From Klebsiella phage vB_KpnM_KB57: 64,000 nucleotides of DNA. The notes beneath the pieces are model-generated. The model had not been told where the DNA came from and did no database searches. It worked only from the letters and a program-made list of their open reading frames with translations. The stretch is from the sequence record NC_028659.1; one strand, 5' to 3'. Below, piece by piece: positions 4,995 through 40,282 of this stretch (position 1 is its first letter; the number at the start of each line of letters is the position of its first letter). A program made the translations under genes and the position numbers.

Positions 4995-6674
4995 TTACAG
5001 TTGAGCGGCTGCGCGTTCACGAATCGTTGTCAGATCTTCATCGACAATAAGTTTACCGTTGTAGAACACACGACGCAGTTCGTTATCGTCAGACTGTACA
5101 TCTTCAAGCTGACAATTGTCAATCAGTTCTAACTGACCGAACATGTTGCGAACAACTTTGAGGAAACCTTTCGCAGATTTCTTACTGAGGTCGGTCTTAG
5201 GCTCTTTGACAACCATGATTTGCTGACCATCAATAACAGCGCCAGTTGCTTTCACAGCCATACCCAGTGAATCACGGGTTGTGTACTGGGTGGTAAAGGA
5301 ACCAACACCGTACACGATATTGCTGGATGCAAAGCCTTTATCTCTCAGACGTTCAAAGATGTCTTTTGCACGCGCGACAGTGATAGAATCACCGTAGATC
5401 AGACCAATATGACTATCAAGAACCTTATAGCCCTTGGAATTAACTTCACCACCGAAAATATCCCATAAACATTGGACTGCACCTACAGCTTCATGGTAAG
5501 GAACTTCATCTGTTTCATCAATAACATCAAAACCTGAAGACTGCTTGACACGATAGAACTTACCAAGAACCTGAACAAGTTCATATCCGGCTTCCGCATT
5601 GGCATCATAAGCTTCTTCAAAGCTTGCATAATCACCGCCATCTGTGTAGTAACCAGCAATGATATGCTCAGGGACACCGGAGTCCGGGCGGAATACAACA
5701 CGTCCATCGCGAGCCATGATTTCCTGTTTCAGGATCGCTGCTGCTTTGGTGATAATCGCCCAGAAGTCATAACTGTCTGCCACGTAGGAAACAAAACCTT
5801 TAGGGAAAATTTCCGTAATGTAGCGTTTCATGAATTCAACTTCAGCCAAGAAACGTGCTTCGTCCAGAGTCAGTTCCGGGTGTTCACCTTGTAGGCGACC
5901 GACGATAAATCCGATGTTCGTGGTTGCAACAGAGTGTTCAGATGCAGGAATAGAACCAGCAACGAACTTGCCTTTCATGTTGTAATAACGACGAGCATAC
6001 AGAATCGCTGGGATAGTGTCTGTACCCATAGAGTTGATCAGTTGACCGAATTCGCTCTGTGCTGCGTCGTGAGTACCAGCTTCACCGCGATATGCGAAGC
6101 AGTGGTTCTGGAATGCAACATGGTCGTTGTTATCACAGGTCTCAGCAGCCCATTTTTCAGACAGCTTGCGATACTGCCAGAACGTCGTTGCAGTTGTGAT
6201 AGTTTTCCAAGTTTCTGCGGAGATCACACTTTCCAGGAAGTTAGGCAACCAGTAAAAATCCGGGTGCGTATTCTGGATTGTAAACATTGGGACCTGAACC
6301 GGAGAAAGAGTTCCTTCTGGAAGAGCACGGATTTCCAGAGGAAGATAACCGAGATCATGAAGAGCCTCAAAGCCCCAGGTTTCTACCATGCCAATGCCGA
6401 TGCTGGAGTCGCAAACCTCACGATAATCAGCAACCGCTTCTTCTTTCGGGAGGTTGAAGAAGTTATTGTTGAACATGTCGATAAGGAACCACTTAATAAA
6501 TCCCTGAAGGCCAGCAAACATGACACGCTGGTCGTTATCAGCGAAGTGGATGAAGTGCTTCGCATTACGAGGGGTCATGTTATCCTGAACAATTTCAGAA
6601 CGTTTATCATACATGGAGATATGTGAAGGTTTGTAAAAGTCAGCGAACAGGATAGGACTTTCTTGATTAAGCAT
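4995..6674 (-). CDS. nadV: Nicotinamide phosphoribosyltransferase (NAMPT / NadV-like)
   Basis: ~560 aa. N-terminal ILFADFYK...SHISMY resembles NAMPT ILLATDSYK..THY. Internal DSYD motif and GVGSF...RD..G..VKATG C-terminal region. Start set at the internal Met preceded by AAGGAG. Confidence 0.75.
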   Translation of the reverse strand: MLNQESPILFADFYKPSHISMYDKRSEIVQDNMTPRNAKHFIHFADNDQRVMFAGLQGFIKWFLIDMFNNNFFNLPKEEAVADYREVCDSSIGIGMVETWGFEALHDLGYLPLEIRALPEGTLSPVQVPMFTIQNTHPDFYWLPNFLESVISAETWKTITTATTFWQYRKLSEKWAAETCDNNDHVAFQNHCFAYRGEAGTHDAAQSEFGQLINSMGTDTIPAILYARRYYNMKGKFVAGSIPASEHSVATTNIGFIVGRLQGEHPELTLDEARFLAEVEFMKRYITEIFPKGFVSYVADSYDFWAIITKAAAILKQEIMARDGRVVFRPDSGVPEHIIAGYYTDGGDYASFEEAYDANAEAGYELVQVLGKFYRVKQSSGFDVIDETDEVPYHEAVGAVQCLWDIFGGEVNSKGYKVLDSHIGLIYGDSITVARAKDIFERLRDKGFASSNIVYGVGSFTTQYTTRDSLGMAVKATGAVIDGQQIMVVKEPKTDLSKKSAKGFLKVVRNMFGQLELIDNCQLEDVQSDDNELRRVFYNGKLIVDEDLTTIRERAAAQL

Positions 6675-6735
6675 GTTTTGTTTCTCCTTTGTTTGTTTAA
6701 TAGGGCGATTGTACGCCCACTTATTCATTTGTCAA

Positions 6736-7536
6736 TTAAAAGTTTTCGGTCCAGTCGTGGTACGCGTAGATTTCATCAACGCCGCCTTCGTAGATAACTT
6801 CTTTACCGAAGGAAAAGATACCGTGAGTTACGTAAAGAATAACACGTTTTGCTCCTTTTGCCTTCAATGCTTGTGCCAGGGCGATGAATGTGCGACCACC
6901 ATCGCAGATATCATCGACAATAACACACTCGCGGCCTTCAACATCACCGAAAACAGCAGTCCCGGTAATTTCATTTGTCTTCAGATCGCGCACTTTTCCA
7001 GCTTCCACCAGAGGGAGGCGGAGACGATCGGAAACTTTCTGAGCTTTTTTACGTGCTCCGGCGTCAGGTGCCACGATAACAACATCTTTTCCAACCAGGC
7101 CTTCATGGAATTCCGCAATAAGAGCATCCTGACCACGAATTTTAACGTTGTTAAGCAACGCAGCAGAGACATCGCTGTGCGGATCATCGACAATGACCTT
7201 GTCAAACCCAAGAGAGTTGACGATATTTGCGAAAACTTTGATGGATAACGCTTCACCAGGTTGCATTACGCGGTCCTGACGTGCATATGGGATGTACGGC
7301 AAGTGCAAAGTGAACTGTGCAGTATGATGGAGGCCTTCAAGGCGAGAACATGCATCAACCAACATGGCAAGTGCCATAACATCAGTAGAATTTTTAATTT
7401 TCGCAGTGATGTCTACGAAACCAATACCACCTTTCGGGGTATGCGCCATATCGATTCTAACCTGTTCTTCACCACCTTTGAACGTAAAGTGATCGACAGG
7501 AACTACCAGTTTGTTCAGACGAAGTTCTAAACTCAT
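6736..7536 (-). CDS. prs: Ribose-phosphate pyrophosphokinase (PRPP synthetase)
   Basis: 266 aa with the PRPP-binding signature VIVDDICDGGRTF. Sits immediately upstream of NAMPT in the same orientation. Confidence 0.8.
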   Translation of the reverse strand: MSLELRLNKLVVPVDHFTFKGGEEQVRIDMAHTPKGGIGFVDITAKIKNSTDVMALAMLVDACSRLEGLHHTAQFTLHLPYIPYARQDRVMQPGEALSIKVFANIVNSLGFDKVIVDDPHSDVSAALLNNVKIRGQDALIAEFHEGLVGKDVVIVAPDAGARKKAQKVSDRLRLPLVEAGKVRDLKTNEITGTAVFGDVEGRECVIVDDICDGGRTFIALAQALKAKGAKRVILYVTHGIFSFGKEVIYEGGVDEIYAYHDWTENF

Positions 7537-7907
7537 TTCATATATCCTCTATTAACAATTATGTAATGTCTAGGTTTTGCATTCCCATTTGAATCCTGAA
7601 AACCAGAACGTATCCTTCGAATGTATCCAAGAGACTCCATCTTTGTCAAGAACTCTGATACTTTCGGTTGTGACTTTTCGCTCAACCCAAACAGATGACA
7701 CAAAGATTTTTGAGATGGGTAAAAAACTTCATCGCCACCATCTGGGTTTAGACTCTTGAAGTAATCATACCTCCACCAAAGCTTGATTAATCTTTGCAAA
7801 TCTTGGGGTGAGAGACGATCATCAAAAAGCCACTGCGTCGGAATGGTGACATATGCCCCATCTCTGATATTCACAGTGTTGTCACCAATCTTTATCTCCA
7901 CCACCAT
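7533..7907 (-). CDS. Hypothetical protein, possible winged-helix DNA-binding regulator (124 aa)
   Basis: ATGA overlap with prs. RBS AGGAG. First gene of the leftward operon, adjacent to palindromic operators. Confidence 0.45.
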   Translation of the reverse strand: MVVEIKIGDNTVNIRDGAYVTIPTQWLFDDRLSPQDLQRLIKLWWRYDYFKSLNPDGGDEVFYPSQKSLCHLFGLSEKSQPKVSEFLTKMESLGYIRRIRSGFQDSNGNAKPRHYIIVNRGYMK

Positions 7908-8176: not shown

Positions 8177-8204
8177 TTGACATGAAATTTTTAACGTGTA
8201 GAAT
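8177..8204 (+). promoter_or_regulatory. sigma70-like promoter TTGACA-N16-TAGAAT for the rightward operon
   Basis: TTGACA at 8177-8182, TAGAAT at 8199-8204. RBS AAGGAG and ATG at 8230 follow. Confidence 0.6.
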
Positions 8205-9221: not shown

Positions 9222-9457
9222 GCAGACTTGCAAAACTAAACAGAAGAAAGAAAATGTTGAAAGAGAAGCAGAAAAACATCACGGCTACTTTCCAAGTATG
9301 CCGAGAGGCTATGAAGGCAAATTTGATAACACCTTCGCAGAGACAGTTGATCCGTGATATTCTTCGTCCTGTACTCCACGACCTTGAAGGTGAAGTTCGT
9401 GATGTTACACTTCATATTCAAGAGGAACTTGTAAAAAGATATCAGGAGGATACATGA
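9218..9457 (+). CDS. Hypothetical protein (79 aa)
   Basis: ATGA overlap coupling. Confidence 0.45.
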   Translation: MSRLAKLNRRKKMLKEKQKNITATFQVCREAMKANLITPSQRQLIRDILRPVLHDLEGEVRDVTLHIQEELVKRYQEDT

Positions 9458-10047
9458 TCGACCACGTCACGTCAGACACGCATTGGTGGCATACCAACAT
9501 CCTTGGTTTCCCATCGTGTGATAAATTCCGTAAGAACCTGTACGGTCCAAAAGAAGACCGTGAAAGTCTGTATGCCATGAATGCAGGCATGATTGAAATC
9601 TGGAATAAGCACGTCAAACCAGATGATGTCGTAGCACATCTTGGTGATTTCGTGATTGCTTACGGACGCTATATTGAGCCTCGTGTTCGTGACATCCTTG
9701 AAAAGATCAACGGAAAGATCATTCTCGTTGGTGGAAATCACGATAACCGTGATACGAAACGTATCTTCCGTGAGTTTGGTCATGAAGTTGTTGATTATAA
9801 AGAGATTGACTTTAGCACAGGGAAAGAGAAGGTGCGGGTATGTATGTCTCACTATCCGTTTGCATCGTGGAACAAAGCACACCACGGGTCAGTTATGTTG
9901 CACGGGCATAGCCACGGCTCCTATACGGCCCCTGGTGGACGTATTCTGGATGTTGGCTGGGATGTACATGGTCGTCCTCTTACGATGCGTGAAGCCGTCC
10001 TGATGTGCCTCAAAAAACCAATCTACACTGCTGACCACGGAGAATAA
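9454..10047 (+). CDS. Calcineurin-like metallophosphoesterase (197 aa). Candidate RNA 2',3'-cyclic phosphodiesterase / 3'-phosphatase.
   Basis: Motifs GDFV (GDxxD), GGNHD (GNHD), HGHSHG (GHxH). Confidence 0.65.
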   Translation: MIDHVTSDTHWWHTNILGFPSCDKFRKNLYGPKEDRESLYAMNAGMIEIWNKHVKPDDVVAHLGDFVIAYGRYIEPRVRDILEKINGKIILVGGNHDNRDTKRIFREFGHEVVDYKEIDFSTGKEKVRVCMSHYPFASWNKAHHGSVMLHGHSHGSYTAPGGRILDVGWDVHGRPLTMREAVLMCLKKPIYTADHGE

Positions 10048-10048
10048 G

Positions 10049-10405
10049 ATGCATAACAAAGAACGGAATTTCATAGCACGTAACACGGCGAAGTCTTTCT
10101 TCGCCACTATTCATATCGCCGGGGACTATACTCAGGCAAAGAATCTTTGTCGTCAGTGGGTTATGCAAGGTGCTTGTGTGCAGATTTCCCCATGCACTTA
10201 TATCTACACAGGCGGTGCGGAAGAGGGTATGACTGTTCGGTTAATGCAGTATCCGCGTTTCCAGAGAACTGAGATTGAAATCCTTGAGATGGCTCGGGAG
10301 TTGGGAACTTACCTCGCTCAAGAGCTTTGCCAGATCAGTTTCAGTATTGAAACACCTTACAATACCACTTATTACCAAGCTGAGGGATACGATAAGCGCT
10401 CATGA
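10049..10405 (+). CDS. Hypothetical protein (118 aa)
   Basis: ORF packed between neighbours. Confidence 0.45.
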   Translation: MHNKERNFIARNTAKSFFATIHIAGDYTQAKNLCRQWVMQGACVQISPCTYIYTGGAEEGMTVRLMQYPRFQRTEIEILEMARELGTYLAQELCQISFSIETPYNTTYYQAEGYDKRS

Positions 10406-10605
10406 AAATACACAACATAACCAAAGACAGGATTCATTTCATAATGGATTCAGGAGCTTACGGATCTATCTCCAAGGCAGATGCCATGAAATTTCTGTAT
10501 GCTTCAAATATTCCTCAGGCAAAGCTTGACTCCCGTTCAGGAGAGTGTATTATTGACTCTATCACGAATATACAAGACCTGTGGGAGATATATCATGAAG
10601 TTTAA
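10402..10605 (+). CDS. Hypothetical protein (67 aa)
   Basis: ATGA overlap. Confidence 0.4.
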   Translation: MKIHNITKDRIHFIMDSGAYGSISKADAMKFLYASNIPQAKLDSRSGECIIDSITNIQDLWEIYHEV

Positions 10606-11557
10606 TGTTGACGATCTGGTCGCTAAAAATCTGGTAACCAAAAAGACTTACACCGAAGGCCCGTTCGCGGGTCTGTCTGTGCTGAAGTATAAGAACAATG
10701 TGTTCTGGGATAACCTGTGGCATACTGACCCACGCCTGCTTGAGTGCCGTGGCATGGTTGTTGATTCAGAAGACAACGTGATTATCTGGCCTTTCACTAA
10801 GATTTTCAACCGCTTCGAGAATGGAACTGACCTTCCTCTTGACAAACCGGTTGTTTGTTCCCGCAAGGTCAATGGTTTTATGGCCACAGCGGCAATACAC
10901 AAAGACAAGCTCCTCGTTTCAACAACAGGGACATTGGATTCTGAGTTTTCAGAATTGGCTCGTAAGTACCTCGAAAAAATGAATTTTGATCTGATTTCTT
11001 TCCGTGAAGATTACACTTTCATTTTCGAAATATGCGATAGCAGCGACCCACATATTGTGGAAGAGAAAGAAGGTGCTTATCTGATTGGTGTCCGTGACCT
11101 CGCTTTAAACGGTGTTATGGTTGAAGAGCACAAACTTGATCGCATCGCTGAAGTGATCGGTGCAAAACGTCCTCAATGGGATGTCCGTGCATTTGGCGAT
11201 GTCGTTGCAGCCAGTCATGCTGTTAGCCACGAAGGTTTTGTTGTCCGAAATATCGGGACAGATGACGAAAATAGCGAACTACTTTTGAAAATCAAGTCCC
11301 CACATTACCTGGCGAAGAAATTCCTGATGCGTGGAGGTGATAACAAGTGGGATATGATCTGGGATAACCCGAAAGAGGCCAAGAAGCGTATTGACGAAGA
11401 GTATTACGAGTTGCTAGACCATATTCGTGAGTATTACTCTAAAGATGTTTGGTCCGCGATGGATTCTCAAAAACGACGTCAGGTTGTTGAAGATTACTTC
11501 GCTATCGAAGACATGTTTGATCGTGGTAGTCGTTTTTATGTTGGGGTTCCAAAATGA
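10595..11557 (+). CDS. ATP-dependent RNA ligase (Rnl-type covalent nucleotidyltransferase, ~320 aa)
   Basis: Nucleotidyltransferase motifs: I KVNG, III FIFEIC, IV EGFVVR, V LLLKIKS. Size fits Rnl2. Confidence 0.6.
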   Translation: MKFNVDDLVAKNLVTKKTYTEGPFAGLSVLKYKNNVFWDNLWHTDPRLLECRGMVVDSEDNVIIWPFTKIFNRFENGTDLPLDKPVVCSRKVNGFMATAAIHKDKLLVSTTGTLDSEFSELARKYLEKMNFDLISFREDYTFIFEICDSSDPHIVEEKEGAYLIGVRDLALNGVMVEEHKLDRIAEVIGAKRPQWDVRAFGDVVAASHAVSHEGFVVRNIGTDDENSELLLKIKSPHYLAKKFLMRGGDNKWDMIWDNPKEAKKRIDEEYYELLDHIREYYSKDVWSAMDSQKRRQVVEDYFAIEDMFDRGSRFYVGVPK

Positions 11558-11898
11558 TTATCTGGCTTGATGACCTGAGAGATCCAAAAGACTACGGGTA
11601 TCCTGATGCCTTGTGGTTCAAGACCTCTCAGAAATTTATGGACTTTCTGGACAACAGGTCAAAGTTCTATCGTTATGTCACAGAGTGGCATTTCGATAAT
11701 GACCTTGGGGAAGGGTCAGAAATGGAGGGCTATGACTGCCTGTTGGCCTTGGAAGAGAAGCTTGTGTATGGAAAACTTCCTGTGCATGATGCTAAACTCT
11801 ATGTCCACACGTCTAACCCTTCTGCGGCACAAAAGTTCATGCTTGCAAAAGAGAGCTTCTTGAAGTATCGTATCACGATCTTAAGAAACAATTACTGA
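11554..11898 (+). CDS. Hypothetical protein (114 aa)
   Basis: ATGA overlap. Confidence 0.45.
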   Translation: MIIWLDDLRDPKDYGYPDALWFKTSQKFMDFLDNRSKFYRYVTEWHFDNDLGEGSEMEGYDCLLALEEKLVYGKLPVHDAKLYVHTSNPSAAQKFMLAKESFLKYRITILRNNY

Positions 11899-11907
11899 GG
11901 AGAAGAG

Positions 11908-12312
11908 ATGGAAAAGACTCTGATTATCCTGCGTGGTGTGTCTGGTGCGGGTAAGTCTACAGTTGCTGAGACAATCGCTGGTAAAGCATGGCCTGTGTTT
12001 GAGGCCGATAAATACCATTATCGGGACGGGGTTTACGACTGGAAGCCTGAAAACATGGCTGTTGCTCATAAGTGGTGTCAAGAACAGGTACGTGAGGCTA
12101 TGGTGTGCCGTATTGCAAAAATTATCGTATCCAACACTTCGACAACAGAGAAGGAACTAAAACCCTACATTGCCCTTGCTGATGAGCACGGATACCAAGT
12201 TATTAGCTTGGTGGTCGAGAATAGGCATGGTAATGATTCTATTCACAATGTTCCGCAGGAAACTCGTGATGCTCAAGAGCTTCGTCTGCGTAACTCATTG
12301 AAATTACAGTAA
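11908..12312 (+). CDS. P-loop polynucleotide 5'-kinase-like protein (134 aa)
   Basis: Walker A GVSGAGKST. Downstream IIVSNTSTTEK resembles the T4 Pnk kinase-domain motif. Confidence 0.5.
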   Translation: MEKTLIILRGVSGAGKSTVAETIAGKAWPVFEADKYHYRDGVYDWKPENMAVAHKWCQEQVREAMVCRIAKIIVSNTSTTEKELKPYIALADEHGYQVISLVVENRHGNDSIHNVPQETRDAQELRLRNSLKLQ

Positions 12313-12320
12313 GGAAAGAT

Positions 12321-12545
12321 ATGTATAAAGGAAATAACCTACGGGAATCGTTCGAAAATTGGTGGGACTCTCTTAGCGATCCTTGGTCAACACCAGAAGC
12401 AAAATCTGCTGCATGGGAAGCCTGGAAGTTTTCAAATTTACGAGTTCTTAATAAAATTCGTTATATGAAAGGTATTACCGAGCGGTGCAATGGTTATAAT
12501 GAGGCTATGAATGAGATAAATAATGTTATAGGGGAAAATCCATGA
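12321..12545 (+). CDS. Hypothetical protein (74 aa)
   Basis: ORF. Confidence 0.4.
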   Translation: MYKGNNLRESFENWWDSLSDPWSTPEAKSAAWEAWKFSNLRVLNKIRYMKGITERCNGYNEAMNEINNVIGENP

Positions 12546-13318
12546 GACGTCTTATCGTTATAAGTGGTGCTGGCTTCTCTGCGGAGAGTGGTGTACGTAC
12601 ATTCCGCACAGATACTGAATCTGGTAAAGCCCTGTGGGATGAATACGACCTTGAGGAGGTTTGTAACATACACGCCTTCCGTGGTAACTTCTACCATAAA
12701 ACGCACATGTTTTATAACAAGCGTCGTGCAGAGTTACCAACGGTACATCCGAATGCGGCGCATCTTCGCGTGGCTGAGTGGTACAGACGTTATCCTGGGC
12801 AGGTTGTTAACATGACAACTAACGTTGATGACCTTCTGGAACGTGCGGGTGTCCCTAAAGAAGATACTCTTTACATCCACGGGTATCTGAAAGAAATTCG
12901 ATACAAGCTCCATGAAGATTCTGAAGAGCAGTTGGTTGACATCGGTTACGATGAGGTAGACCCCGACCAATTTCATTGGTGTAAACCAAACGTAGTTTTC
13001 TTTGGTGAGAATGCTCCGGCCTATGGCCCTATGAATGATACCTTGGAGTCATTGACAAATCAGGATCTTGTAATTGTTGTAGGCTGTTCAAATACAGTTA
13101 TTAACTTCAACTGGGAGTTGTTCCCTGCGGTTATGCGGGGGACCAAAGTTGTTGTTGTTAATCCTGCTATTAGGTATGATGAACAAATGATGTATGAGAA
13201 TGCGGGTGTTCTTGTATATCGTACCGGAGCTGTTGATGCCTTTAATAATCCAGGCCTTATCAAGATAGTTGAGAATCACCTTGAAGGTAAGACACCATTG
13301 CAAAGCAAGGAGAAATAA
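12542..13318 (+). CDS. SIR2-family (sirtuin-like) NAD-dependent protein
   Basis: N-terminal GAGFSAESGVRTFR matches Sir2 GAGIS.ESGIP.FR. HPNAAH (PN.AH) and TTNVDDL (TQNIDGL) motifs present. No obvious CxxC..CxxC zinc ribbon. Confidence 0.65.
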   Translation: MRRLIVISGAGFSAESGVRTFRTDTESGKALWDEYDLEEVCNIHAFRGNFYHKTHMFYNKRRAELPTVHPNAAHLRVAEWYRRYPGQVVNMTTNVDDLLERAGVPKEDTLYIHGYLKEIRYKLHEDSEEQLVDIGYDEVDPDQFHWCKPNVVFFGENAPAYGPMNDTLESLTNQDLVIVVGCSNTVINFNWELFPAVMRGTKVVVVNPAIRYDEQMMYENAGVLVYRTGAVDAFNNPGLIKIVENHLEGKTPLQSKEK

Positions 13319-14631
13319 TGCAACAAGTAAACAGTACACTGTACGCCCTTAATAAAGATGGTTCTTTCCAGTGTTGGAAGGTGTTTATTGCTGGTAATCA
13401 GGTAGTTGTAGAGTTTGGCAAGGTTGGTGGTAAGAAGCAACAAAAGGTTACCACCTGTGAACCGAAGAACGTTGGACGTTCTAACGAAACCACCGCAGAA
13501 CAGCAGGCATTGGCTGAGGCGGTTTCCAAATGGGAGAAACAGGTTCGCCTTGGATATCGTGACGATACAAGTAAGCTTGAGCAGGAAGAGAACTTCTCCC
13601 CAATGCTGGCCCATGATGCAACTAAACGTTCAAAATCAATAGTTTATCCTGCATACGTGCAACCTAAGCTCGATGGTGTACGTGCTCTGGTTACTCTTGA
13701 TGCAGATGGCTTCCCACAATTCAATAGCCGTGGTAACAAACTGTATCCTGTACCGCTTGATTCTGAGTTGTCTGAACAGGTTAAATCCCTTTCTGAGCAT
13801 TCAGGGTTTGACAAATTCGATGGGGAGCTGTACATTCATGGTCTGAGTCTGCAAAAGATTGTCGCTCTTGCTAAGAAGTGGCGTACACCAGAGCAGATCG
13901 AGGAAGAGATTGAAAAGGATTATCAGTCTGACCTGAAGCGCCATCAGAAAGCTATTGACAATGGGGAAGACAGTTGGAAAGATTTCGATGGTGATGTTTA
14001 CTCTGTCGCGATCGAACCAGTTAAAGATGTTGATCGTTATGGCGGCTATTCAAGCCTTGACCTAGAGTACCATATCTTTGACATTCCGTGTTCAAATAAA
14101 CCCTGGATGATTAACGATGGGATTTCAGACTATACAGATAAGGAGTGTCGATACAAAGACCTTATGGACACTGACCACTTCACCTCTGTTATTAAAGCAG
14201 ATAAAATAAATGTGGTCCAAGGTAATGTCTTTGACACTGAGGATGAGGTTAAGCAATCAATCGGACATTTTATGCAGCAAGGCTTTGAGGGTGCTATCAT
14301 CCGAAATTTCAAAGGTGTCTATGAATTTGGTCAGCGATCTTCTGATCTCCAGAAATGGAAACTTTTCCAAGACGGCGAGGCTAAAGTCCTTGATTCTGTG
14401 GAAGATAAGAACGGTGAGGGTGTATTACTCTGCGAAGAGAAAGATGGTACACGTTTCAACTGTAAAATGAAGGGAACCCACGCAGAGAGATCTCAGGAAC
14501 GAATGCTCCTGCTGGTGGGTAAGTTTATTAACTTCACGTTCCAAGCTAGAACTGATGATGGTGTTCCTCAGTTCCCTGTGGGCCAAAGCGTTCGTGAACT
14601 CGATACATTAACATGGGAGCCTGTATACTAA
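13318..14631 (+). CDS. ATP-dependent DNA ligase (437 aa)
   Basis: Motif I PKLDGVRAL (KxDG), size and position within a DNA-metabolism operon. Confidence 0.55.
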   Translation: MQQVNSTLYALNKDGSFQCWKVFIAGNQVVVEFGKVGGKKQQKVTTCEPKNVGRSNETTAEQQALAEAVSKWEKQVRLGYRDDTSKLEQEENFSPMLAHDATKRSKSIVYPAYVQPKLDGVRALVTLDADGFPQFNSRGNKLYPVPLDSELSEQVKSLSEHSGFDKFDGELYIHGLSLQKIVALAKKWRTPEQIEEEIEKDYQSDLKRHQKAIDNGEDSWKDFDGDVYSVAIEPVKDVDRYGGYSSLDLEYHIFDIPCSNKPWMINDGISDYTDKECRYKDLMDTDHFTSVIKADKINVVQGNVFDTEDEVKQSIGHFMQQGFEGAIIRNFKGVYEFGQRSSDLQKWKLFQDGEAKVLDSVEDKNGEGVLLCEEKDGTRFNCKMKGTHAERSQERMLLLVGKFINFTFQARTDDGVPQFPVGQSVRELDTLTWEPVY

Positions 14632-15092
14632 TGGGATTTTATCGTAAAAAACCTGTAGAGGTTGAAGCACATAAGTTTGACGGGTCGTCAACCAGCGCAG
14701 GGCAGATCCATAATTGGATGGAAACTGGTGTGTGGAAGGATTCCGAAATCCACACTCGTGATTGTGGTCGTACTGTAGAGATAAAAACCCCAGAGGGTGT
14801 GGTTGTAGCCTCTGCTGGGGATTATGTAATTAAAGGGGTGGCTGGAGAATTCTATCCTTGCAAATCAGAAATTTTCCATGCAACATATGACCCGCTGGAA
14901 GACACTGATCGGGAACCTGGGAACTACCCAGCTAAAGCAATCCGTAAGGGTGATGAGATCATGTTTTGCGGAAAGGTTTATACCGTAACGAATACTGGTG
15001 CGATGGGGGAGGATGTTATCCTGACTCTCGGTGATGGTTCCCAAATCCCTGTGCGCCCTGATACTCAAATTATCGTAACAAAGGCACAGTAA
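14613..15092 (+). CDS. Hypothetical protein (159 aa)
   Basis: ORF. Confidence 0.45.
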   Translation: MGACILMGFYRKKPVEVEAHKFDGSSTSAGQIHNWMETGVWKDSEIHTRDCGRTVEIKTPEGVVVASAGDYVIKGVAGEFYPCKSEIFHATYDPLEDTDREPGNYPAKAIRKGDEIMFCGKVYTVTNTGAMGEDVILTLGDGSQIPVRPDTQIIVTKAQ

Positions 15093-15093
15093 A

Positions 15094-15444
15094 ATGATCT
15101 GGTATTGGCTGGCGCTACTAGGCGCATCATTTGTAACAGGAGGCGGCATTTATGCCGCTTACAGATTCCGAAAAGATAAGTTGGATGATTTCTTTGACTG
15201 GGTTGCTGGAAAGGTTAAACGTCTGCTGATCATCTGGGTATTTGTTATGGGCCTTGTTACGCTGGCCCTTACTGTCCCATTATGGCATACTATGACTTGT
15301 CAGTTCGACGGCTGGGCCGCGAATACAGAGACCAGTTATTCATGGTACAAATCAACCTGCCTGTATAAAAGCAAGACAGGGGCATGGCTACCTTTAGGTA
15401 TCAGTCGTGATCAACCGCAAGGAGATGGTGATGCATCAAATTAA
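15094..15444 (+). CDS. Membrane protein (116 aa, 2 TM)
   Basis: Two hydrophobic helices. Confidence 0.45.
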   Translation: MIWYWLALLGASFVTGGGIYAAYRFRKDKLDDFFDWVAGKVKRLLIIWVFVMGLVTLALTVPLWHTMTCQFDGWAANTETSYSWYKSTCLYKSKTGAWLPLGISRDQPQGDGDASN

Positions 15445-15685
15445 AGAAAATACTGTAGATTTTGAAGCGCATATCTACGATTCTGCGATGAACGACAACT
15501 ACAGATGGTCAATTCGTCCAGATCCTGATCTGCCAGGTTCAGTTAATCTTTCTTACAATGAGTTAGCTCATTATGACAACCGTTCTCGCCAAGGCTATGA
15601 GCAGCGAGGTATGGTAGGTTTCGATAAAGAAACTTGGGAAAAAATTAAATACGCCATCGATGGTGTTTTTGAAAAAACAATTTAG
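15431..15685 (+). CDS. Hypothetical protein (~84 aa)
   Basis: Start at the Met preceded by GGAG. Confidence 0.4.
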   Translation: MHQIKENTVDFEAHIYDSAMNDNYRWSIRPDPDLPGSVNLSYNELAHYDNRSRQGYEQRGMVGFDKETWEKIKYAIDGVFEKTI

Positions 15686-15693
15686 GAGATTTA

Positions 15694-16359
15694 ATGAAAG
15701 AAGCTTACGAAACCCTCAACTCAATGCTGCGCCCAACCTCCCTTGTTAAGTATGCGAAACATGTGGTAGATTGGAATTCTATCGCAGCTTCTGCAAAGGG
15801 TGAATTTACCCCATTGGAAAAGCAGTGGGAGTTTGTCGGAGAGGAGTTAGAAGAAACCGTTAAGGCATTAGCCGAAAATGACCGTAAGGAAGTCATTGAT
15901 GGGGCATGTGACTTGTTTGTTGTAGCGTCGTATGCTTATTGGTTGAGTAATAACCATTCACTATCCTTAAATTATAACCCTGATCTTAAGTTTTCGCTTG
16001 GTAAAGCTTTGGATGCTTTTGCGAATGAAGACTACGAAGAAATGCTTAAATTGAGCACAGCTTTGTTGTTTGGTATTGATATGCAATTGGATAAGAACAT
16101 GAGTAGCGTTCTTGAGTCTAACGATTCTAAATATCCAACACTTAACGAAGTTCAGTCTTTGCATAAAGATCTTGACTTGGTAAAAGCCCTTGAGGCAGAA
16201 TGCGCCTGTATCGAACGGCGTAACGGTGGACGTTATGAAGGTGTTCATTTCTCGATTGTTGATGGGAATATGAAAGAAGAGCCTCGTGTCGTATTCTTCG
16301 ACAAAGGTGGTAAAATCATGAAGCCTGGAACTTTCAAAAAGCCAAACATTATTGTTTGA
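15694..16359 (+). CDS. MazG-like all-alpha nucleotide pyrophosphohydrolase domain protein (221 aa), tentative
   Basis: EELEE...E..D acidic cluster (VGEELEETVKALAENDRKEVIDGACD) resembling the MazG EExxE..E..D motif. Confidence 0.35.
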   Translation: MKEAYETLNSMLRPTSLVKYAKHVVDWNSIAASAKGEFTPLEKQWEFVGEELEETVKALAENDRKEVIDGACDLFVVASYAYWLSNNHSLSLNYNPDLKFSLGKALDAFANEDYEEMLKLSTALLFGIDMQLDKNMSSVLESNDSKYPTLNEVQSLHKDLDLVKALEAECACIERRNGGRYEGVHFSIVDGNMKEEPRVVFFDKGGKIMKPGTFKKPNIIV

Positions 16360-16636
16360 CAATCGCATCGGGGTCTGTATGATGACCCCATCAAGACAAA
16401 AGGAGAACGAAGTGGAAGAAAATATTGATTATTCTGAAATTGTTGCCTTAGCTAATCGCCTTAAAATTACCATCATGAATCGCGGGGCATCTTCCCGTCA
16501 TGTTATCCGCTTCACGATGAAGCGTCGTTGGGGCGGCGTAAAGAAATACGCTTATGAATGCACACTCGGCACACTGGTATCTCATGTCAACCAGATCGAG
16601 AGAATGGGCGGAAAAATTGTCGGCATTGACAATTGA
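16352..16636 (+). CDS. Hypothetical protein (94 aa)
   Basis: ORF. Confidence 0.4.
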   Translation: MFDNRIGVCMMTPSRQKENEVEENIDYSEIVALANRLKITIMNRGASSRHVIRFTMKRRWGGVKKYAYECTLGTLVSHVNQIERMGGKIVGIDN

Positions 16637-18367: not shown

Positions 18368-18562
18368 ATGATCCGCACAAAAATTCTTATCGCAGCATTG
18401 CTGCTCTCTTCTCCGGTATTCGCAACTGTAAACACTCTCGATTTGGTTGATGAATATACCAACGGCAGCTCTAAGGTCTGCGTTTACAGCGACGGTCATC
18501 GAACAGAGACTGTAACAAAAGATGGCGCTGGTTCTTGTCCAAGTAAGAAAACATTTCATTGA
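18368..18562 (+). CDS. Small secreted protein (64 aa) with signal peptide
   Basis: N-terminal MIRTKILIAALLLSSPVFA signal. RBS AAGGAG. Confidence 0.5.
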   Translation: MIRTKILIAALLLSSPVFATVNTLDLVDEYTNGSSKVCVYSDGHRTETVTKDGAGSCPSKKTFH

Positions 18563-18569
18563 GGGAATA

Positions 18570-19076
18570 ATGCGAGTAACTGATAAATACGTCTTTTTCT
18601 TCACTTACCGGGATATGTTCAGTAATCACTACCGCCAAGTTATTCCTATTCGTTGTGGTGGTTACGAGTTTTTCACTGTAGAACATTACATGATGTTCCA
18701 GAAGGCAATGCTCTTCGATGACAAAGAAATTGCTTCCCGTATCGCTACGGTTGATAACCCTAATGAGGCCAAAGCTCTTGGTCGTCAGGTAAAAGGTTTC
18801 GACAACAGCGTCTGGGAAGAAAATAGAATGGATATAGTGACTTCAGGTCTTGTATTGAAAATGAAGGCCAACAGATCTGTTCTCGAAGCTGCTCTTGGGC
18901 ATCGAGATGCTGGGCGTAAGTTTGTGGAAGCCTCCCCTTATGATGCCATCTGGGGTGTTAAATTAAACGAATATGACACACGTATCGATGACCCAACCAA
19001 CTGGCGTGGTTTGAATCTTCTCGGTAAGTGCTGGGAACGAGCTATTGATATTGTTGTTGCTGCAACGTGGAGGTGA
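18570..19076 (+). CDS. NADAR (YbiA-like, DUF1768) domain protein. Predicted ADP-ribose / N-glycosidic hydrolase.
   Basis: FFFTYRDMFSNHYRQ...GGYEFFTVEHYMMFQKAMLFDD...AKALGRQV...WEENR...ASPYDAIWGV matches NADAR family hallmarks (F.SNF...F.T.EHY.QA.KF...LGR...W.....SP.D.WG). Confidence 0.65.
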   Translation: MRVTDKYVFFFTYRDMFSNHYRQVIPIRCGGYEFFTVEHYMMFQKAMLFDDKEIASRIATVDNPNEAKALGRQVKGFDNSVWEENRMDIVTSGLVLKMKANRSVLEAALGHRDAGRKFVEASPYDAIWGVKLNEYDTRIDDPTNWRGLNLLGKCWERAIDIVVAATWR

Positions 19077-37357: not shown

Positions 37358-38605
37358 ATGAAAGTATATCTGGTAGGTGGCGCTGTTCGTGATGGTCTGC
37401 TGGGTCGTCCAGTTCATGACCGTGATTACGTGGTTGTGGGTGCAACACACGAAGAGATGATTGAAAAAGGTTTCACCCAGGTTGGCGCTGCTTTCCCGGT
37501 GTACTTGCATCCTGAAACCAAAGAAGAATACGCACTGGCCCGTACTGAGCGTAAAACTGGTGAAGGCCATACTGGCTTTGAGACCTTCTTCAGCCCGGAT
37601 GTAACTCTGGAAGAGGATTTATCGCGTCGTGACCTGACGATCAATGCGATGGCTAAAGACATGGAGACAGGATTTATCATTGACCCGTTCAATGGTATGC
37701 ATGACCTGTCGAATATGATTCTTCGTCATACTACGTCGGCGTTCATGGATGACCCTCTGCGTATTCTGCGTCTTTTCCGTCTTAAGTCGCAGTTGGGTGA
37801 GAGTTGGTCTGTTGACCATAAAACATACACACTTATGTTTAATAATCGTCACCGTCTTGCGGAGATTAGCCCTGAGCGGAAATGGAAAGAAATGGAAAAG
37901 GCCTTAAATTCCAAAAACTTCCATAATTACGCCTACCACATGTCGATTATGGGCGAACTTCCAGAACTGGATGCCCTACGTGGAGTAGAGCAGCCACCAG
38001 AACATCACCCTGAGGGAGACGCTTTCATTCATACGTTGATGTGTCTGCAACAGGCCGATAAAACCTTTTGCTCTCCTCAGGTGAAATTTGCGGTGCTGTG
38101 TCATGACTTTGGAAAGGCGATCACTTTCCGTAAGTACGGTAATCTTCTCGGTCATGAAGAGGCGGGTCTTGACCCTGTGCGGACGCTGTGCAGTCGAATT
38201 CGAGTTCCTAACGAATTCAGGGATATTGCACTGTACGTGACAGAGCACCATACTCGTGTGCATTGCATTTTGGGCCGTGGGAATAATAAAGGAATCAAGC
38301 CCCGTTCCATGATGAAGCTTTTCGAGGCCGCAGGTAACGTGGCTAGTCAGAAGACACAGGATAAGGTGTTTTCCTTAGCAGACGCCTGTTTCTGCGATGC
38401 CCGTGGTCGTGGTGCCGCCCACGCAGACAAGGAATACCCTCAAGGAAAAATTCTCCTTGATGCTTTCGAGGCAGTTGTAAATATGGACAGCAAGGCGGTA
38501 TCTTCCGCAATGCTGGAGAAAGGCAAAAGCGGTAAGGAGATCGGTGAGGCGATCCGTGTTGCACGTATCGATGCAATCCGTAATGTTCTTAAGGAGAGAT
38601 CATGA
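37358..38605 (+). CDS. cca: tRNA nucleotidyltransferase (CCA-adding enzyme, class II with HD domain)
   Basis: N-terminal MKVYLVGGAVRDGLLGRPVHDRDYVVVGAT is the canonical class II CCA head motif. HD-domain HHPEGD further on. 415 aa. Confidence 0.85.
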   Translation: MKVYLVGGAVRDGLLGRPVHDRDYVVVGATHEEMIEKGFTQVGAAFPVYLHPETKEEYALARTERKTGEGHTGFETFFSPDVTLEEDLSRRDLTINAMAKDMETGFIIDPFNGMHDLSNMILRHTTSAFMDDPLRILRLFRLKSQLGESWSVDHKTYTLMFNNRHRLAEISPERKWKEMEKALNSKNFHNYAYHMSIMGELPELDALRGVEQPPEHHPEGDAFIHTLMCLQQADKTFCSPQVKFAVLCHDFGKAITFRKYGNLLGHEEAGLDPVRTLCSRIRVPNEFRDIALYVTEHHTRVHCILGRGNNKGIKPRSMMKLFEAAGNVASQKTQDKVFSLADACFCDARGRGAAHADKEYPQGKILLDAFEAVVNMDSKAVSSAMLEKGKSGKEIGEAIRVARIDAIRNVLKERS

Positions 38606-39060
38606 AACTTGTAAGTCACGAAGACTTTAACCTGTGGTGGATAAGACGCTCTCCAAAGAATACTATAGACGCGAAGGCAGAGTATGCTCGACTTGTGGCG
38701 AGATGTGATTACCCGGCTTGGGAATTCCTTAAGTTCTTGGAAAAAGAGGCGAGCAACTTTAGGACCAGAAATGAAGGGAAAAGGAAATTTCTTGTGTGGA
38801 AAAATGGAGAGCTTCCTTTCCGCATAGAGAAGGTGGAAATCTTCGATATAACTGAGTATGGGACTGATCACGCAATCAGCTTCAAAGGAATTTCTTGGGC
38901 TACTCTGTTTGAGAGAACGCTGCTCAACCATGCGTTAGCAAGACTTTTCAACCTGGCAGACAGGCTCACGGAAAAAGATGAAAAACTGCTTGAACTTGAG
39001 TCTTTCAAACAGACCAGGAATGAACTTGGGAATTGGCTGGAGGAGCAGAATAATGCCTAA
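38602..39060 (+). CDS. Hypothetical protein (152 aa)
   Basis: ATGA overlap with cca. Confidence 0.45.
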   Translation: MKLVSHEDFNLWWIRRSPKNTIDAKAEYARLVARCDYPAWEFLKFLEKEASNFRTRNEGKRKFLVWKNGELPFRIEKVEIFDITEYGTDHAISFKGISWATLFERTLLNHALARLFNLADRLTEKDEKLLELESFKQTRNELGNWLEEQNNA

Positions 39061-39262
39061 GGACAAAGAAGAGTACACCTACGAGAAACATCATTTCTTT
39101 CTGGACAAACATGCAGGGAAGCAAGTTTGTGCATGGTGCGGTTTAGTAGTCCTGCGTAACAAGGCCACAGACTGGTGTATCGAAAAAGGTTGTAATTATC
39201 GCTTGCATCCAAGCTACAAGGGTGCTATGTTTAAATACACAGAGTTCTTCAAAAAAGGATAG
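39053..39262 (+). CDS. Small Cys-containing protein (69 aa)
   Basis: Start at the Met preceded by GGAGG. CAWCG...C..KGC. Confidence 0.4.
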   Translation: MPKDKEEYTYEKHHFFLDKHAGKQVCAWCGLVVLRNKATDWCIEKGCNYRLHPSYKGAMFKYTEFFKKG

Positions 39263-39266
39263 AAAA

Positions 39267-39578
39267 ATGAATTATATCGACGATGTTGTACTTCCTGTAT
39301 GGAGATTTATCTTTAATAACGCATTCTTGCTTATGTTCGTGTTCAGCCTCCTGGCTGGGCTGGGGATTGGTATCAGTTACCGGGCAGAAGATGATACTAT
39401 CTGGTACAAGTATGGCCTGCCAGCTTGCCTTGCGGTTATGTGTGGATTATTCCTTCCAGTAATTATTGCAATAGGTGTGCTACTGCTCCCTATTCTTGTG
39501 CTTGCTGCGGGGGTTGCTATCTTGGCATTAGGGGCATTCCTTCTTGGTAAGTTTTTGAAAGAAAGGAAAGAAAAATGA
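39267..39578 (+). CDS. Membrane protein (103 aa, 3 TM)
   Basis: Hydrophobic helices. Confidence 0.45.
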   Translation: MNYIDDVVLPVWRFIFNNAFLLMFVFSLLAGLGIGISYRAEDDTIWYKYGLPACLAVMCGLFLPVIIAIGVLLLPILVLAAGVAILALGAFLLGKFLKERKEK

Positions 39579-39790
39579 TTTTTGCCATTATTTATATTGT
39601 TCTCGGTATCATCACAGCAGTGGCGATAATTTATCACATCCTTCGTGAACAAGATTTACTGAGGGTCGAAGATATTTTAATTTCCCTGATCTGTGGTGTT
39701 TTTTGGTGGTTAGCTATTTTATGCGCTATTTGTGGTTGGGTAGGGAAGCATCTGAATAGCAGGACAGTTGTGTATAGGAGAAAGAAATAA
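39575..39790 (+). CDS. Membrane protein (71 aa, 2 TM)
   Basis: ATGA overlap. Hydrophobic. Confidence 0.45.
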   Translation: MIFAIIYIVLGIITAVAIIYHILREQDLLRVEDILISLICGVFWWLAILCAICGWVGKHLNSRTVVYRRKK

Positions 39791-40281: not shown

Positions 40282-40282
40282 C

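Follow-up and report, generated by a model that had tools for sequence, protein, structure and literature searches.

The window, i.e., the whole stretch of 64,000 nucleotides analysed here, belongs to a Mydovirus-type Klebsiella phage (vB_KpnM_KB57, NC_028659.1). It carries a predicted sirtuin gene embedded in a series of genes on the same strand, together with further genes related to NAD+ metabolism:

4995..7536, - strand: NARP1-type pair identified by Pfam, a NAMPT-like gene (4995-6728) and a Prs-like gene (6736-7536), divergent from the operon
9454..10047, + strand: calcineurin-like phosphoesterase (Metallophos; PF00149, E=1.5e-6)
10580..11557, + strand: T4 Rnl1-type RNA ligase (PF09511, E=3.1e-13), annotated as "RNA ligase" in relatives
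11554..11898, + strand: cREC (cyclic-phosphate processing receiver domain) protein (PF20274, E=4.2e-17)
11908..12312, + strand: P-loop kinase (AAA_33; PF13671, E=1.8e-10), candidate polynucleotide 5'-kinase by its inferred role
12321..12545, + strand: 74-aa protein of unknown function (phrog_343; no Pfam match)
12542..13318, + strand: Sir2/CobB-like class III sirtuin, 258 aa (Pfam, PHROG, AlphaFold2, Foldseek)
13318..14631, + strand: ATP-dependent DNA ligase (PF01068, PF14743), its start overlapping the sirtuin stop codon
15694..16359, + strand: MazG-like nucleotide pyrophosphohydrolase (PF01503, E=1.5e-5), apparent end of the operon
18522..19076, + strand: NADAR-domain protein (PF08719, E=5.7e-35)

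The sirtuin ORF starts with an ATG preceded by a Shine-Dalgarno-like AGGGG stretch. It overlaps the ORF of the upstream 74-aa protein by 4 nt (ATGA), and its stop codon shares 1 nt with the start of the DNA ligase ORF that follows (TAATG). Genes for the phosphoesterase, Rnl1 RNA ligase, cREC protein, P-loop kinase, Sir2, DNA ligase and MazG protein follow one another in this order, and the RNA ligase, cREC, kinase, MazG and phosphoesterase genes recognized by Pfam all lie on the same strand, from ~3.1 kb upstream to ~3.0 kb downstream of the sirtuin gene. Judging from its predicted domains, this is an RNA-end healing and sealing operon, a context that the initial annotation did not mention. 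Across loci and lineages of the Vequintavirinae type, this arrangement is conserved, and the 74-aa protein was restricted to Mydovirus-type loci among the loci compared. A promoter-like site (11/12 match) is located at 16356-16383, after the MazG-like gene; since the scan for promoters and terminators returned 30 sites against 23.1 +/- 4.7 in shuffled sequences, i.e., no enrichment, the operon boundaries are suggestive only. The NAMPT/Prs module and the NADAR protein, which the initial annotation had placed in the same genome, were both recovered by Pfam. The former pair resembles NARP1 (Adps and Namat) of Bas63 in its adjacent Prs-like and NAMPT-like genes, a likeness of architecture alone; in phage Bas63, two genes so arranged have been shown to regenerate NAD+ (10.1101/2024.02.11.579819). 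RlaP and a CCA-adding enzyme are also encoded in the window.

The proposed SIR2-family identity of the protein holds: the ORF spans exactly 12542..13318, the motifs first quoted for it are present, and it matches the SIR2 profile PF02146 over its full length (positions 1-178 of 180, E=1.3e-23, 84.4 bits for a gathering score of 24). PHROG 2162 (E=1.8e-109) and E. coli CobB (1s5p; phmmer E=5.6e-21, 34% identity over 192 aa) are matched as well, and all three matches are, as sequence comparisons, far above chance level. Deposited "Sir2 NAD-dependent deacetylase" entries are 100% identical to the sirtuin of the window. PF02146 is its sole Pfam match, with no match to Tpt1/KptA (PF01885), and its fold is that of a sirtuin. 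We do not file it as a CobB orthologue because it scores under the cut-off of all seven NCBIfam CobB equivalog models (NF040867, NF001753 and others), with for instance 114.5 bits for a cut-off of 243 and 95 bits for a cut-off of 320.

The active-site motifs are distributed along the protein as follows, invariance referring to an alignment of 27 clade members of at least 54% identity:

12566..12607, + strand: NAD-binding motif GAGFSAESGVRTFR (aa 9-22); G9, A10, G11, S13, S16, G17, F21 and R22 invariant
12710..12727, + strand: FYNKRR (aa 57-62) with the class III YxxR pair Y58/R61; Y58, R61 and R62 invariant
12746..12763, + strand: HPNAAH (aa 69-74); P70, N71 and H74 invariant
12815..12835, + strand: TTNVDDL (aa 92-98) with the catalytic-site residues N94 and D96; T93, N94, V95 and D96 invariant
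12878..12880, + strand: His113 (IHG), predicted catalytic and invariant; its counterpart in the CobB alignment is the catalytic His of HMHG
12884..12997, + strand: equivalent of the zinc module (aa 115-152), Cys4 ligands missing, with a conserved D-[IV]-G-Y core
12998..13009, + strand: FFGE substrate/NAD loop (aa 153-156); F153, F154 and E156 invariant
13082..13108, + strand: GCSNTVINF (aa 181-189), G-x-S followed by a clade-specific VI(N/D)F that replaces the canonical VYPA

G181, S183 and N207 are invariant too. Together with G9, G11, S13, F21, R22, Y58, R61, R62, N71, H74, N94, D96, H113, F154 and E156, these three are likewise kept across 25 tabulated Cys-less viral sequences, all 25 of which have both Y58 and R61. 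The FYNKRR segment aligns with FYNARR of E. coli CobB; in CobB and SIRT5, the YxxR pair binds acidic acyl groups (the acyl carboxylate in SIRT5). VINF or VIDF follows G-x-S in 23 of these 25 sequences, the exceptions being VIAF (L065) and VVPV (L067); VYPA is the form that E. coli CobB shares with most of the cellular relatives.

The AlphaFold2 model (pLDDT 88.9, pTM 0.87) superposes on CobB, Af1-Sir2 and SIRT5, which supports a sirtuin fold with an NAD pocket. Foldseek ranks CobB first (target-normalised TM 0.83-0.84), followed by Af1-Sir2 and SIRT5, and the best 50 structural matches in the PDB are CobB, archaeal/Thermotoga Sir2 or SIRT5 chains, with no other kind among them. By fold, the protein is closest to housekeeping class III sirtuins (CobB, Af1-Sir2, SIRT5) and not to SIR2 of the ThsA or DSR type. 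The pocket and the catalytic His and Asn, on which the initial annotation had made its assignment depend, are thus in place, N94, D96 and H113 being invariant in the clade. That the catalytic and NAD-binding residues are invariant across Demerecviridae, Vequintavirinae and Stephanstirmvirinae indicates selection for catalysis. Taken from motifs and model, the protein is very probably a catalytically competent, NAD+-consuming class III (CobB/SIRT5-like) enzyme.

The zinc module has indeed lost its CxxC...CxxC ligands, as had been suspected from the sequence. The protein has three cysteines in total (C41, C147 and C182) and no CxxC, and the 38-residue stretch that separates the catalytic HG from the FGE loop contains one Cys vs four in E. 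coli CobB. This Cys is variable (position 147 is C, V or A), so that none is conserved there in the 27 clade members, and no replacement set of His, Cys or Asp ligands is conserved in the module across the clade. The segment is of normal length, and AlphaFold2 models it as three strands (114-122, 130-133 and 146-151) with block-mean pLDDT of ~93-96. The loss is predicted to be limited to the zinc ligands, the small beta-module being kept as a metal-free scaffold across the clade. Chromosomal CobB-like sirtuins of Bacteroidota have lost the same cysteines; the loss is therefore not phage-specific, and by itself gives no sign of a new function. In an unbootstrapped NJ tree, these Bacteroidota sirtuins form a branch separate from the phage clade, and zinc-ligand loss probably occurred independently in the two. 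Their zinc-free small domains offer a natural experiment on the need of sirtuins for structural zinc. The loss is not mentioned in the searched text of PMC9503650. The bacterial sirtuin Sir2La, a possible further case without a zinc site, is not used for comparison, bioRxiv 10.1101/252379 being silent on zinc.

Sirtuin homologues occur in about 989 phage records, where they are routinely annotated, "cobB" of T5 among them. Their carriers include T5, rV5-like and phi92-like phages, as well as therapeutic phages of Klebsiella, Salmonella and E. coli. The gene is common among large virulent phages and is carried by hundreds of sequenced virulent phages, including a model phage. In phi92-like phages, the conserved upstream neighbours of the sirtuin have no Pfam match, belong to PHROGs of unknown function and gave nothing above 20% probability when compared by local hhalign with Metallophos, MazG, Rnl1, kinase, cREC and HAD_SAK_2. 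The clade was found in viral contigs, and a survey of about 185,000 species genomes revealed no cellular homologue above 42% identity. In 2022, Iyer, Burroughs, Anantharaman and Aravind described a 'distinct clade of viral sirtuins' (Viruses 14:1977, PMC9503650). The searched text of their article names phage V5 and Proteus phage Mydo, in which the sirtuin accompanies a T4-like tRNA ligase, cREC, a nucleotide kinase and MazG (plus a calcineurin-like phosphoesterase), and proposes, on a computational basis alone, that viral sirtuins remove RNA 2'-phosphates in the manner of Tpt1. The sirtuin of the window belongs to this clade, and the neighbourhood re-derived from the window matches the published one exactly. 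The clade, its gene context and the RNA-repair hypothesis have therefore been known since 2022; the observation is not new, and its value lies in biochemistry. A literature search for experimental work on phage-encoded CobB-like sirtuins yielded only this computational study and unrelated papers on NARP or defence.

As to the main reaction of the enzyme, we tentatively favour protein-lysine deacylation, at a probability a little below even. Like CobB, the sirtuin would bind an acylated lysine together with NAD+; attack of the acyl oxygen on C1' of the nicotinamide ribose would release nicotinamide, and His113 would then activate the ribose 2'-OH, leading to O-acyl-ADP-ribose and the deacylated lysine. 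Its YxxR pair points to acidic acyl groups (succinyl, malonyl) as preferred substrates besides acetyl. The likely purpose would be to strip inhibitory acylations off host or phage proteins early in infection. Speculative targets are the adenylatable active-site lysines of the flanking RNA and DNA ligases, by analogy with the reactivation of acetyl-CoA synthetase by CobB. The phosphoesterase, cREC and MazG proteins, together with the NARP1-type pair, could then recycle the ADP-ribose product and nicotinamide to NAD+. If this is true, phages actively change the lysine acylation of host proteins or of their own in the course of infection.

Several observations point to a deacylase. CobB is the best match in both sequence and structure, the catalytic, lysine-tunnel and FGE-loop residues are kept in the clade, and the protein is acidic (pI 5.4; clade range 4.7-5.8, median 5.0), resembling cellular CobBs. 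Among cellular sequences, its nearest relatives are CobB-like genes that stand alone, with no RNA-repair genes beside them; apart from Prs, found twice, none of the operon proteins lies beside the sirtuin in the cellular loci examined. The missing zinc ligands call for no new function, given the same loss in the chromosomal CobB-like sirtuins of Bacteroidota. On the other side stand the scores far under the NCBIfam CobB thresholds, the change of the peptide-contacting strand from VYPA to VI(N/D)F and the altered zinc module, which shapes the cleft. Moreover, a generic deacylase leaves unexplained why, in separate lineages, the gene repeatedly adjoins enzymes that process RNA ends or ADP-ribose.

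This adjacency speaks for the published proposal of Iyer et al. (2022), according to which the sirtuin would be a Tpt1/KptA-like RNA-repair enzyme that transfers ADP-ribosyl to an RNA 2'-phosphate, and which we consider possible but unlikely. After a cut by a host anticodon nuclease or toxin RNase, cREC would open the 2',3'-cyclic phosphate, the kinase would phosphorylate the 5' end and Rnl1 would seal the break, the remaining 2'-phosphate being the substrate of the sirtuin. Its oxygen, instead of an acyl oxygen, would attack C1' of NAD+; the ribose 2''-OH, activated by His113, would then attack the phosphate, giving 2'-OH RNA, ADP-ribose-1'',2''-cyclic phosphate and nicotinamide. A cREC, HAD or Metallophos enzyme would turn the cyclic product into ADP-ribose, from which the NARP1-type pair could make NAD+ again. 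Since sirtuins and Tpt1 follow formally parallel reaction paths, all conserved catalytic residues fit RNA repair; for the same reason, their retention cannot tell deacylation apart from a reaction of the Tpt1 type.

Several points of context favour RNA repair. First, overlapping frames embed the sirtuin gene in the Metallophos-Rnl1-cREC-kinase-Sir2-DNA ligase-MazG series, which is conserved across Vequintavirinae-type lineages. Second, T5-like phages have, independently of this operon, a HAD_SAK_2 gene (PF18143, E=4.9e-20) beside the sirtuin; it follows the sirtuin in T5-type loci and precedes it in L164. This HAD domain is named for 'Swiss Army Knife RNA repair'. Third, Metallophos is the most recurrent neighbour of the sirtuin across phage lineages and adjoins it in four further lineages. 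Among the 25 Pfam families listed for 102 neighbours in 11 distant viral loci, it alone was recurrent (3 loci), RlaP and NAMPT appearing once each; the 2H/Nudix/PIN context reported for jumbo-phage sirtuins in PMC9503650 was not reproduced among them. Finally, phi92-like genomes hold sirtuin, Rnl1 and cREC together, the RlaP and CCA-adding enzyme of the window would suit RNA repair, and an altered VYPA strand and zinc module would fit an altered substrate.

Other observations argue against the sirtuin acting on RNA. Metallophos, kinase and Rnl1 make up a complete T4-type heal-and-seal pathway, which would leave no 2'-phosphate. The RNA-repair operon of phi92-like phages is intact without the sirtuin, which is located elsewhere in the genome, and in T5-like phages the sirtuin is retained while Rnl1 and cREC are essentially missing; both situations fit a more general role. 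Rnl1 is encoded by many phages of Pseudomonas and Streptomyces, yet these are not among the main sirtuin carriers. Longer relatives of the sirtuin contain no fusions to RNA-repair or Macro/Nudix modules, only WG repeats, RHS repeats or tandem SIR2. Because phage early regions cluster nucleic-acid enzymes generally, adjacency is weak evidence. As for the protein itself, it is acidic, shows no clade-specific basic patch in its sequence and retains the lysine-tunnel and FGE residues, and we know of no sirtuin that acts on nucleic-acid phosphates.

A little less probable is the wider claim that the clade represents the first nucleic-acid-directed class III sirtuin, an NAD+-using analogue of Tpt1 that would remove 2'-phosphates or ADP-ribosylate phosphorylated ends in RNA cut by host anticodon nucleases or toxin RNases, its product being recycled via cREC/Metallophos/HAD enzymes and the NARP1-type pair. 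If so, tRNA would be repaired at no net NAD+ cost, and zinc-ligand loss and the VYPA-to-VINF change would be adaptations of the cleft from peptide to RNA. RNA 2'-phosphate removal, if true, would carry sirtuin chemistry over to nucleic acids. It would also give phage tRNA repair an NAD+-dependent step, with a link to the NAD+ arms race (NARP1, NADAR).

It is improbable that the protein is an NAD+-consuming ADP-ribosyltransferase directed against host proteins, as the initial annotation had suggested, acting in a SirTM-like manner, or that it simply hydrolyses NAD+ as a NADase, with NARP1 compensating for the phage. Its NAD pocket is intact, the same genome encodes NAD-rebuilding genes and NADAR, and weak ADP-ribosyltransferase activity occurs in some class III/IV sirtuins, but nothing specific supports the transferase role. 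Macro domains, the partners in SirTM systems, are absent from the Pfam-scanned ORFs of the operon and flanks (~8.2-17.1 kb). Fold and active site are nearest to true deacylases and not to the ThsA, DSR or SIR2-HerA NADases. A constitutive NADase would counter the NAD-restoring genes of the phage itself, and the T5-like loci examined contain no NARP1-type genes. The defence-type SIR2 models of PADLOC gave no match at E<=1, on which ground both defence-like and decoy readings were rejected. An inactive decoy or sponge that would titrate activators or partners of host SIR2-based defences, also suggested at first and prompted by nothing more specific than a phage-encoded SIR2 homologue and the existence of such defences, is highly improbable for a protein that is nearest to the housekeeping CobB/SIRT5 type in structure, resembles no defence SIR2 model and keeps its catalytic and NAD-binding residues invariant over widely different phage families.

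In comparison with known systems, the defence SIR2 NADases (ThsA, DSR1/2, SIR2-HerA) and SirTM have the SIR2 superfamily and NAD+ use in common with the phage sirtuin, and a zinc ribbon is likewise missing from many of them. They differ in their sensor or partner domains (SLOG, HerA, pAgo etc.), none of which was found among the neighbours of the single-domain phage sirtuin, and in the operonic Macro partner of SirTM; judged by this partner alone, the phage protein falls outside SirTM. Tpt1/KptA is alike by analogy only, in its use of NAD+, release of nicotinamide, transfer of ADP-ribose to an oxyanion followed by the ribose 2''-OH step and RNA-repair context; its ART-like fold is unrelated to the Rossmann/sirtuin fold, with no similarity of sequence or structure. 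The Cys-less sirtuins of Bacteroidota (e.g., of Hymenobacter and Bacteroidales MAGs) share all catalytic motifs with the phage clade and, in most cases, the D-I-G-Y core, but keep the canonical VYPA, are 33-41% identical and stand alone without RNA-repair neighbours. Human SIRT5, a class III desuccinylase/demalonylase, is a structural match (TM about 0.7) with the YxxR pair in common; it differs by its own Cys4 zinc site and larger insertions, and its phmmer match covers the N-terminal half only (query residues 2-119). Closest of all is CobB of E. coli and Salmonella (1s5p, 6rxj), a class III sirtuin and NAD+-dependent protein deacylase of the same fold, similar size and acidic pI, whose GAGxS, FR, FYNxRR (YxxR), PNxxH, TxNxD, HG, FGE and GxS motifs are identical in the phage sirtuin. 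CobB keeps the zinc cysteines and VYPA, whereas the phage sirtuin has a single variable Cys in the module and VINF after GxS, lies in an RNA-repair operon and is carried by virulent phages.

Inside an RNA-end-processing operon, vB_KpnM_KB57 encodes a class III sirtuin whose active site is intact and strongly conserved, on a CobB-like fold with a small domain lacking metal ligands; its substrate we infer. The gene belongs to a tightly packed same-strand run (9454-16359):

9454-10047, +, calcineurin-like phosphoesterase
10049-10405, +, uncharacterised 118-aa protein
10580-11557, +, T4 Rnl1-type RNA ligase
11554-11898, +, cyclic-phosphate processing receiver domain (cREC) protein
11908-12312, +, AAA_33 P-loop kinase
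12321-12545, +, uncharacterised 74-aa ORF (phrog_343), sharing 4 nt with the Sir2 start
12542..13318, +, Sir2 ORF, 258 aa (exact ORF match)
13318-14631, +, ATP-dependent DNA ligase
between the DNA ligase and the MazG-like gene, +, three small uncharacterised ORFs
15694-16359, +, MazG-like pyrophosphohydrolase

The Sir2 ORF starts at an ATG preceded by an AGGGG stretch, and its stop codon shares its final base with the start of the DNA ligase ORF. Promoter-like sites at 8177-8204 and 16356-16383 match the consensus in 11/12 positions, and no convincing + strand terminator was seen between them; since the promoter/terminator scan overall showed no enrichment over shuffles, the operon limits set by these sites are at most suggestive. 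The phrog_343 ORF is confined to the closest (Mydovirus-type) loci and is absent from rV5-like loci.

The SIR2-family call of the initial annotation holds far beyond chance: the three motifs it quoted are all found in the ORF, whose product covers the whole Pfam SIR2 profile (PF02146, E=1.3e-23) and matches PHROG 2162, "Sir2 (NAD-dependent deacetylase)" (E=1.8e-109). E. coli CobB (1s5p) is its best solved relative (E=5.6e-21; 34% identity over 192 aa). Across an alignment of 27 members of its clade of viral Cys-less CobB-like sirtuins, 54-90% identical to the KB57 protein, the residues invariant in 27/27 are G9, A10, G11, S13, S16, G17, F21, R22, Y58, R61, R62, P70, N71, H74, N94, D96, H113, G114, K148, P149, N150, F153, F154, E156, G181, S183 and N207; the same residues are kept in 25 tabulated Cys-less viral sequences. 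They span the NAD-binding loop, the catalytic Asn/Asp/His, the FGE loop, the GxS motif and the class III YxxR pair, which in CobB and SIRT5 binds the succinyl or malonyl carboxylate. The AlphaFold2 model is confident (pLDDT 88.9, pTM 0.87), with uncertainty in the flexible cofactor-binding loop alone (residues 23-30), and the 50 best Foldseek hits in the PDB are without exception CobB, SIRT5 or a Sir2 from archaea or Thermotoga (CobB at a target-normalised TM of 0.83-0.84). Because the NAD-binding and catalytic residues are invariant, the model confident and its structural matches CobB, Sir2 and SIRT5, the NAD pocket and catalytic His/Asn on which the sirtuin call hinges are present in alignment and model alike, and the phage protein looks, from its residues, like an active enzyme. 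No PADLOC model matched it. A variable insertion of ~21-27 residues, which the KB57 protein lacks, sits directly before the FYNxRR helix of the helical module (alignment columns 52-78, between residues 50 and 51) in about 40% of the clade, in phi92-like and some T5-like members. No informative domain fusions were found among long sirtuin relatives; longer metagenomic ones, P0149 (521 aa), P0223 (528 aa) and P0258 (485 aa), include a tandem double SIR2 and WG-repeat or RHS-repeat fusions.

The canonical zinc ribbon is, as first noted, missing: among the three cysteines of the protein (C41, C147, C182) there is no CxxC. Between the HG and FGE motifs, CobB has 40 residues with four cysteines, whereas the phage protein has 38 with one, and no cysteine of this segment is conserved across the 27-member clade, position 147 being C, V or A. 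It is the ligands that are lost and not the module, since three beta-strands are still predicted there with high confidence (AlphaFold2) and the D-[IV]-G-Y core common to relatives with canonical CxxC...CxxC is retained. A search of 1.84 billion representatives gave 3341 matches at E<=1e-3; among the best 150, the zinc segment has no cysteine in 42, one in 11 and exactly four in 69, and the closest ~25 are nearly all Cys-less there. The loss is not phage-specific, because among the best 80 cellular loci (L084-L163) many chromosomal CobB-like genes of Bacteroidota also have 0-1 cysteines in this segment, most of them around a DIGY core and all with every catalytic motif kept. Hymenobacter, Bacteroidales and Odoribacteraceae are among the taxa concerned, and loci L113, L121, L124 and L127 are examples. 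In a rough neighbour-joining tree, built without bootstrap, the Cys-less forms of Bacteroidota branch apart from the phage Cys-less clade, whose neighbours are four-Cys forms from jumbo phages and Campylobacterales; this separation suggests at least two independent losses of the ligands.

Sirtuin deacylation and Tpt1 dephosphorylation run parallel: each begins with attack of an oxyanion on C1' of NAD+ and loss of nicotinamide, followed by attack from the ribose 2'-OH. That the catalytic residues are conserved thus cannot tell one reaction from the other. We tentatively favour a CobB-like lysine deacylase, at somewhat under an even chance, on the homology to CobB, the fact that FGE and lysine-tunnel residues are kept, the acidity of the clade (median pI 5.0, range 4.7-5.8, as in cellular CobBs), and cellular relatives that are stand-alone genes and, on chromosomes, equally Cys-less. 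Neighbourhoods point the same way in part. From 78 viral loci, sirtuins were clustered at 80% identity into 30 clusters; phmmer, Pfam and de novo clustering were applied to the neighbouring genes. In the phi92-like group (7 clusters) all sirtuin neighbours are uncharacterised, and the cREC-phosphoesterase-Rnl1-kinase-DNA ligase-MazG operon stands beside NAMPT/Prs with the sirtuin elsewhere in the genome (Escherichia phage muut, NC_052657.1, 11063-20144, locus L169). The T5-like phages carry a sirtuin and essentially no phage RNA ligase; they hardly figure in the match lists for Rnl1 or cREC, and Salmonella phage records number 289 for the sirtuin vs 15 each for Rnl1 and cREC. The sirtuin of phi92-like PHB05 (L005) adjoins uncharacterised phrog_8514 and phrog_9509, with DprA-like and methyltransferase genes nearby, and 7-11-like contigs have unannotated sirtuin neighbours.

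RNA-directed ADP-ribosyl transfer in RNA repair, which we consider rather unlikely, draws on RNA-end or ADP-ribose-processing enzymes recurring next to the sirtuin, in part independently. The RNA-repair set adjoins the sirtuin in the Vequintavirinae-type group (7 clusters); in the T5-like group (5 clusters) NrdD lies upstream and the 'Swiss Army Knife RNA repair' HAD phosphatase HAD_SAK_2 (PF18143, E=4.9e-20) downstream; Metallophos adjoins in four further lineages (L039, L044, L082, L083). In T5-like phages HAD_SAK_2 always adjoins the sirtuin, on either side:

7142-7648, T5 (L003), HAD_SAK_2
9279-9818, locus L017, HAD_SAK_2
5203-5694, locus L164, HAD_SAK_2

In a divergent T5-like contig it lies upstream instead, so that the adjacency outlasts rearrangement. 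The T5 gene carries no annotation beyond 'Aeh1ORF302c-like'. The same reading gains from a changed substrate cleft: the strand after GxS is V-I-(N/D)-F, specific to the clade, vs the canonical V-Y-P-A, which in solved sirtuins touches the substrate peptide. Further NAD and RNA-maintenance genes, including the NAMPT/Prs and NADAR genes whose co-occurrence with the sirtuin had been pointed out correctly, lie elsewhere in the window:

4995-6728, -, NAMPT-like gene, 576 aa, divergent, upstream of the Sir2 operon
6736-7536, -, Prs-like gene, 265 aa, divergent, upstream of the Sir2 operon
18522-19076, +, NADAR-domain protein (PF08719, E=5.7e-35), ~5 kb downstream of the sirtuin
37358-38605, +, CCA-adding tRNA nucleotidyltransferase with HD domain
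39790-40281, +, 163-aa protein, weak PTH2-like match (E=0.008)
40283-40657, +, DUF7205
40664-41737, +, RlaP 'RNA repair pathway' nucleotidyltransferase

The last four form a second RNA-maintenance cluster (37358-41737, +), and NADAR is placed equivalently in other Mydovirus/Seunavirus-type loci (L006-L011, L040, L167). The adjacent phosphoesterases, cREC, MazG, NADAR and the NARP1-type pair may just as well serve to recycle O-acyl-ADP-ribose and nicotinamide, the products expected of a deacylase. A protein ADP-ribosyltransferase or NADase, also proposed initially, is quite improbable; a decoy is scarcely credible, and something else takes what remains.

At the DNA level the region shares 94-98% identity with Mydovirus-type phages of the Vequintavirinae (Proteus phage Mydo and Klebsiella phages KpS8, Seu621, BIS47 and Iguana), and its sirtuin matches both the "Sir2 NAD-dependent deacetylase" of vB_Kpn_K54_rec4 and the KpS8 entry at 100% identity. 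With tblastn homologues in 989 phage records, among them rV5-like, phi92-like, 7-11-like, T5-like Salmonella, KVP40-like Vibrio and several jumbo phages, and existing annotations (in T5, "cobb: putative transferase"), the gene is common and routinely annotated. The tight clade appears virus-restricted, since no homologue above 42% identity was found in ~185,000 cellular species-representative genomes. Five 'Campylobacter phage' records of 135-151 kb, some unannotated (MG065645, MG065650, MG065666, MG065674, MG065682; matches H48, H54, H90, H101, H135), hold sirtuin, Rnl1 and cREC as identical to ours as those of E. coli rV5-like and phi92-like phages, and may be mislabelled.

The object is thus already known, its clade, neighbourhood (this phage genus named) and mechanistic hypothesis having been published in 2022. 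In the text searched, Iyer, Burroughs, Anantharaman and Aravind (Viruses 2022, PMC9503650) place most viral sirtuins in a distinct clade, name phage V5 and Proteus phage Mydo for the neighbourhood of T4-like tRNA ligase, cREC, nucleotide kinase and MazG, with or without a calcineurin-like phosphoesterase, add two further types, one having a Swiss-army-knife HAD phosphatase (phage SP15) and one from jumbo phages, and propose RNA 2'-phosphate removal, like KptA/Tpt1; that text makes no mention of zinc-ligand loss. The clade-wide loss with the module kept is real and modest, shared by bacterial CobB-like enzymes; the papers searched gave no account of it, in Bacteroidota CobB-like sirtuins either, and no experimental study of a clade member was found. 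The sirtuin occurs in T5 and in hundreds of further phages; its substrate can be tested directly, and would be of note were the RNA reading correct. As for its NAD+ setting, the NAMPT-like and Prs-like pair of phage Bas63, named NARP1, was found experimentally to restore NAD+, with ADP-ribose and nicotinamide as starting material (10.1101/2024.02.11.579819), and the pair in the window has the same two-gene architecture (Namat and Adps).
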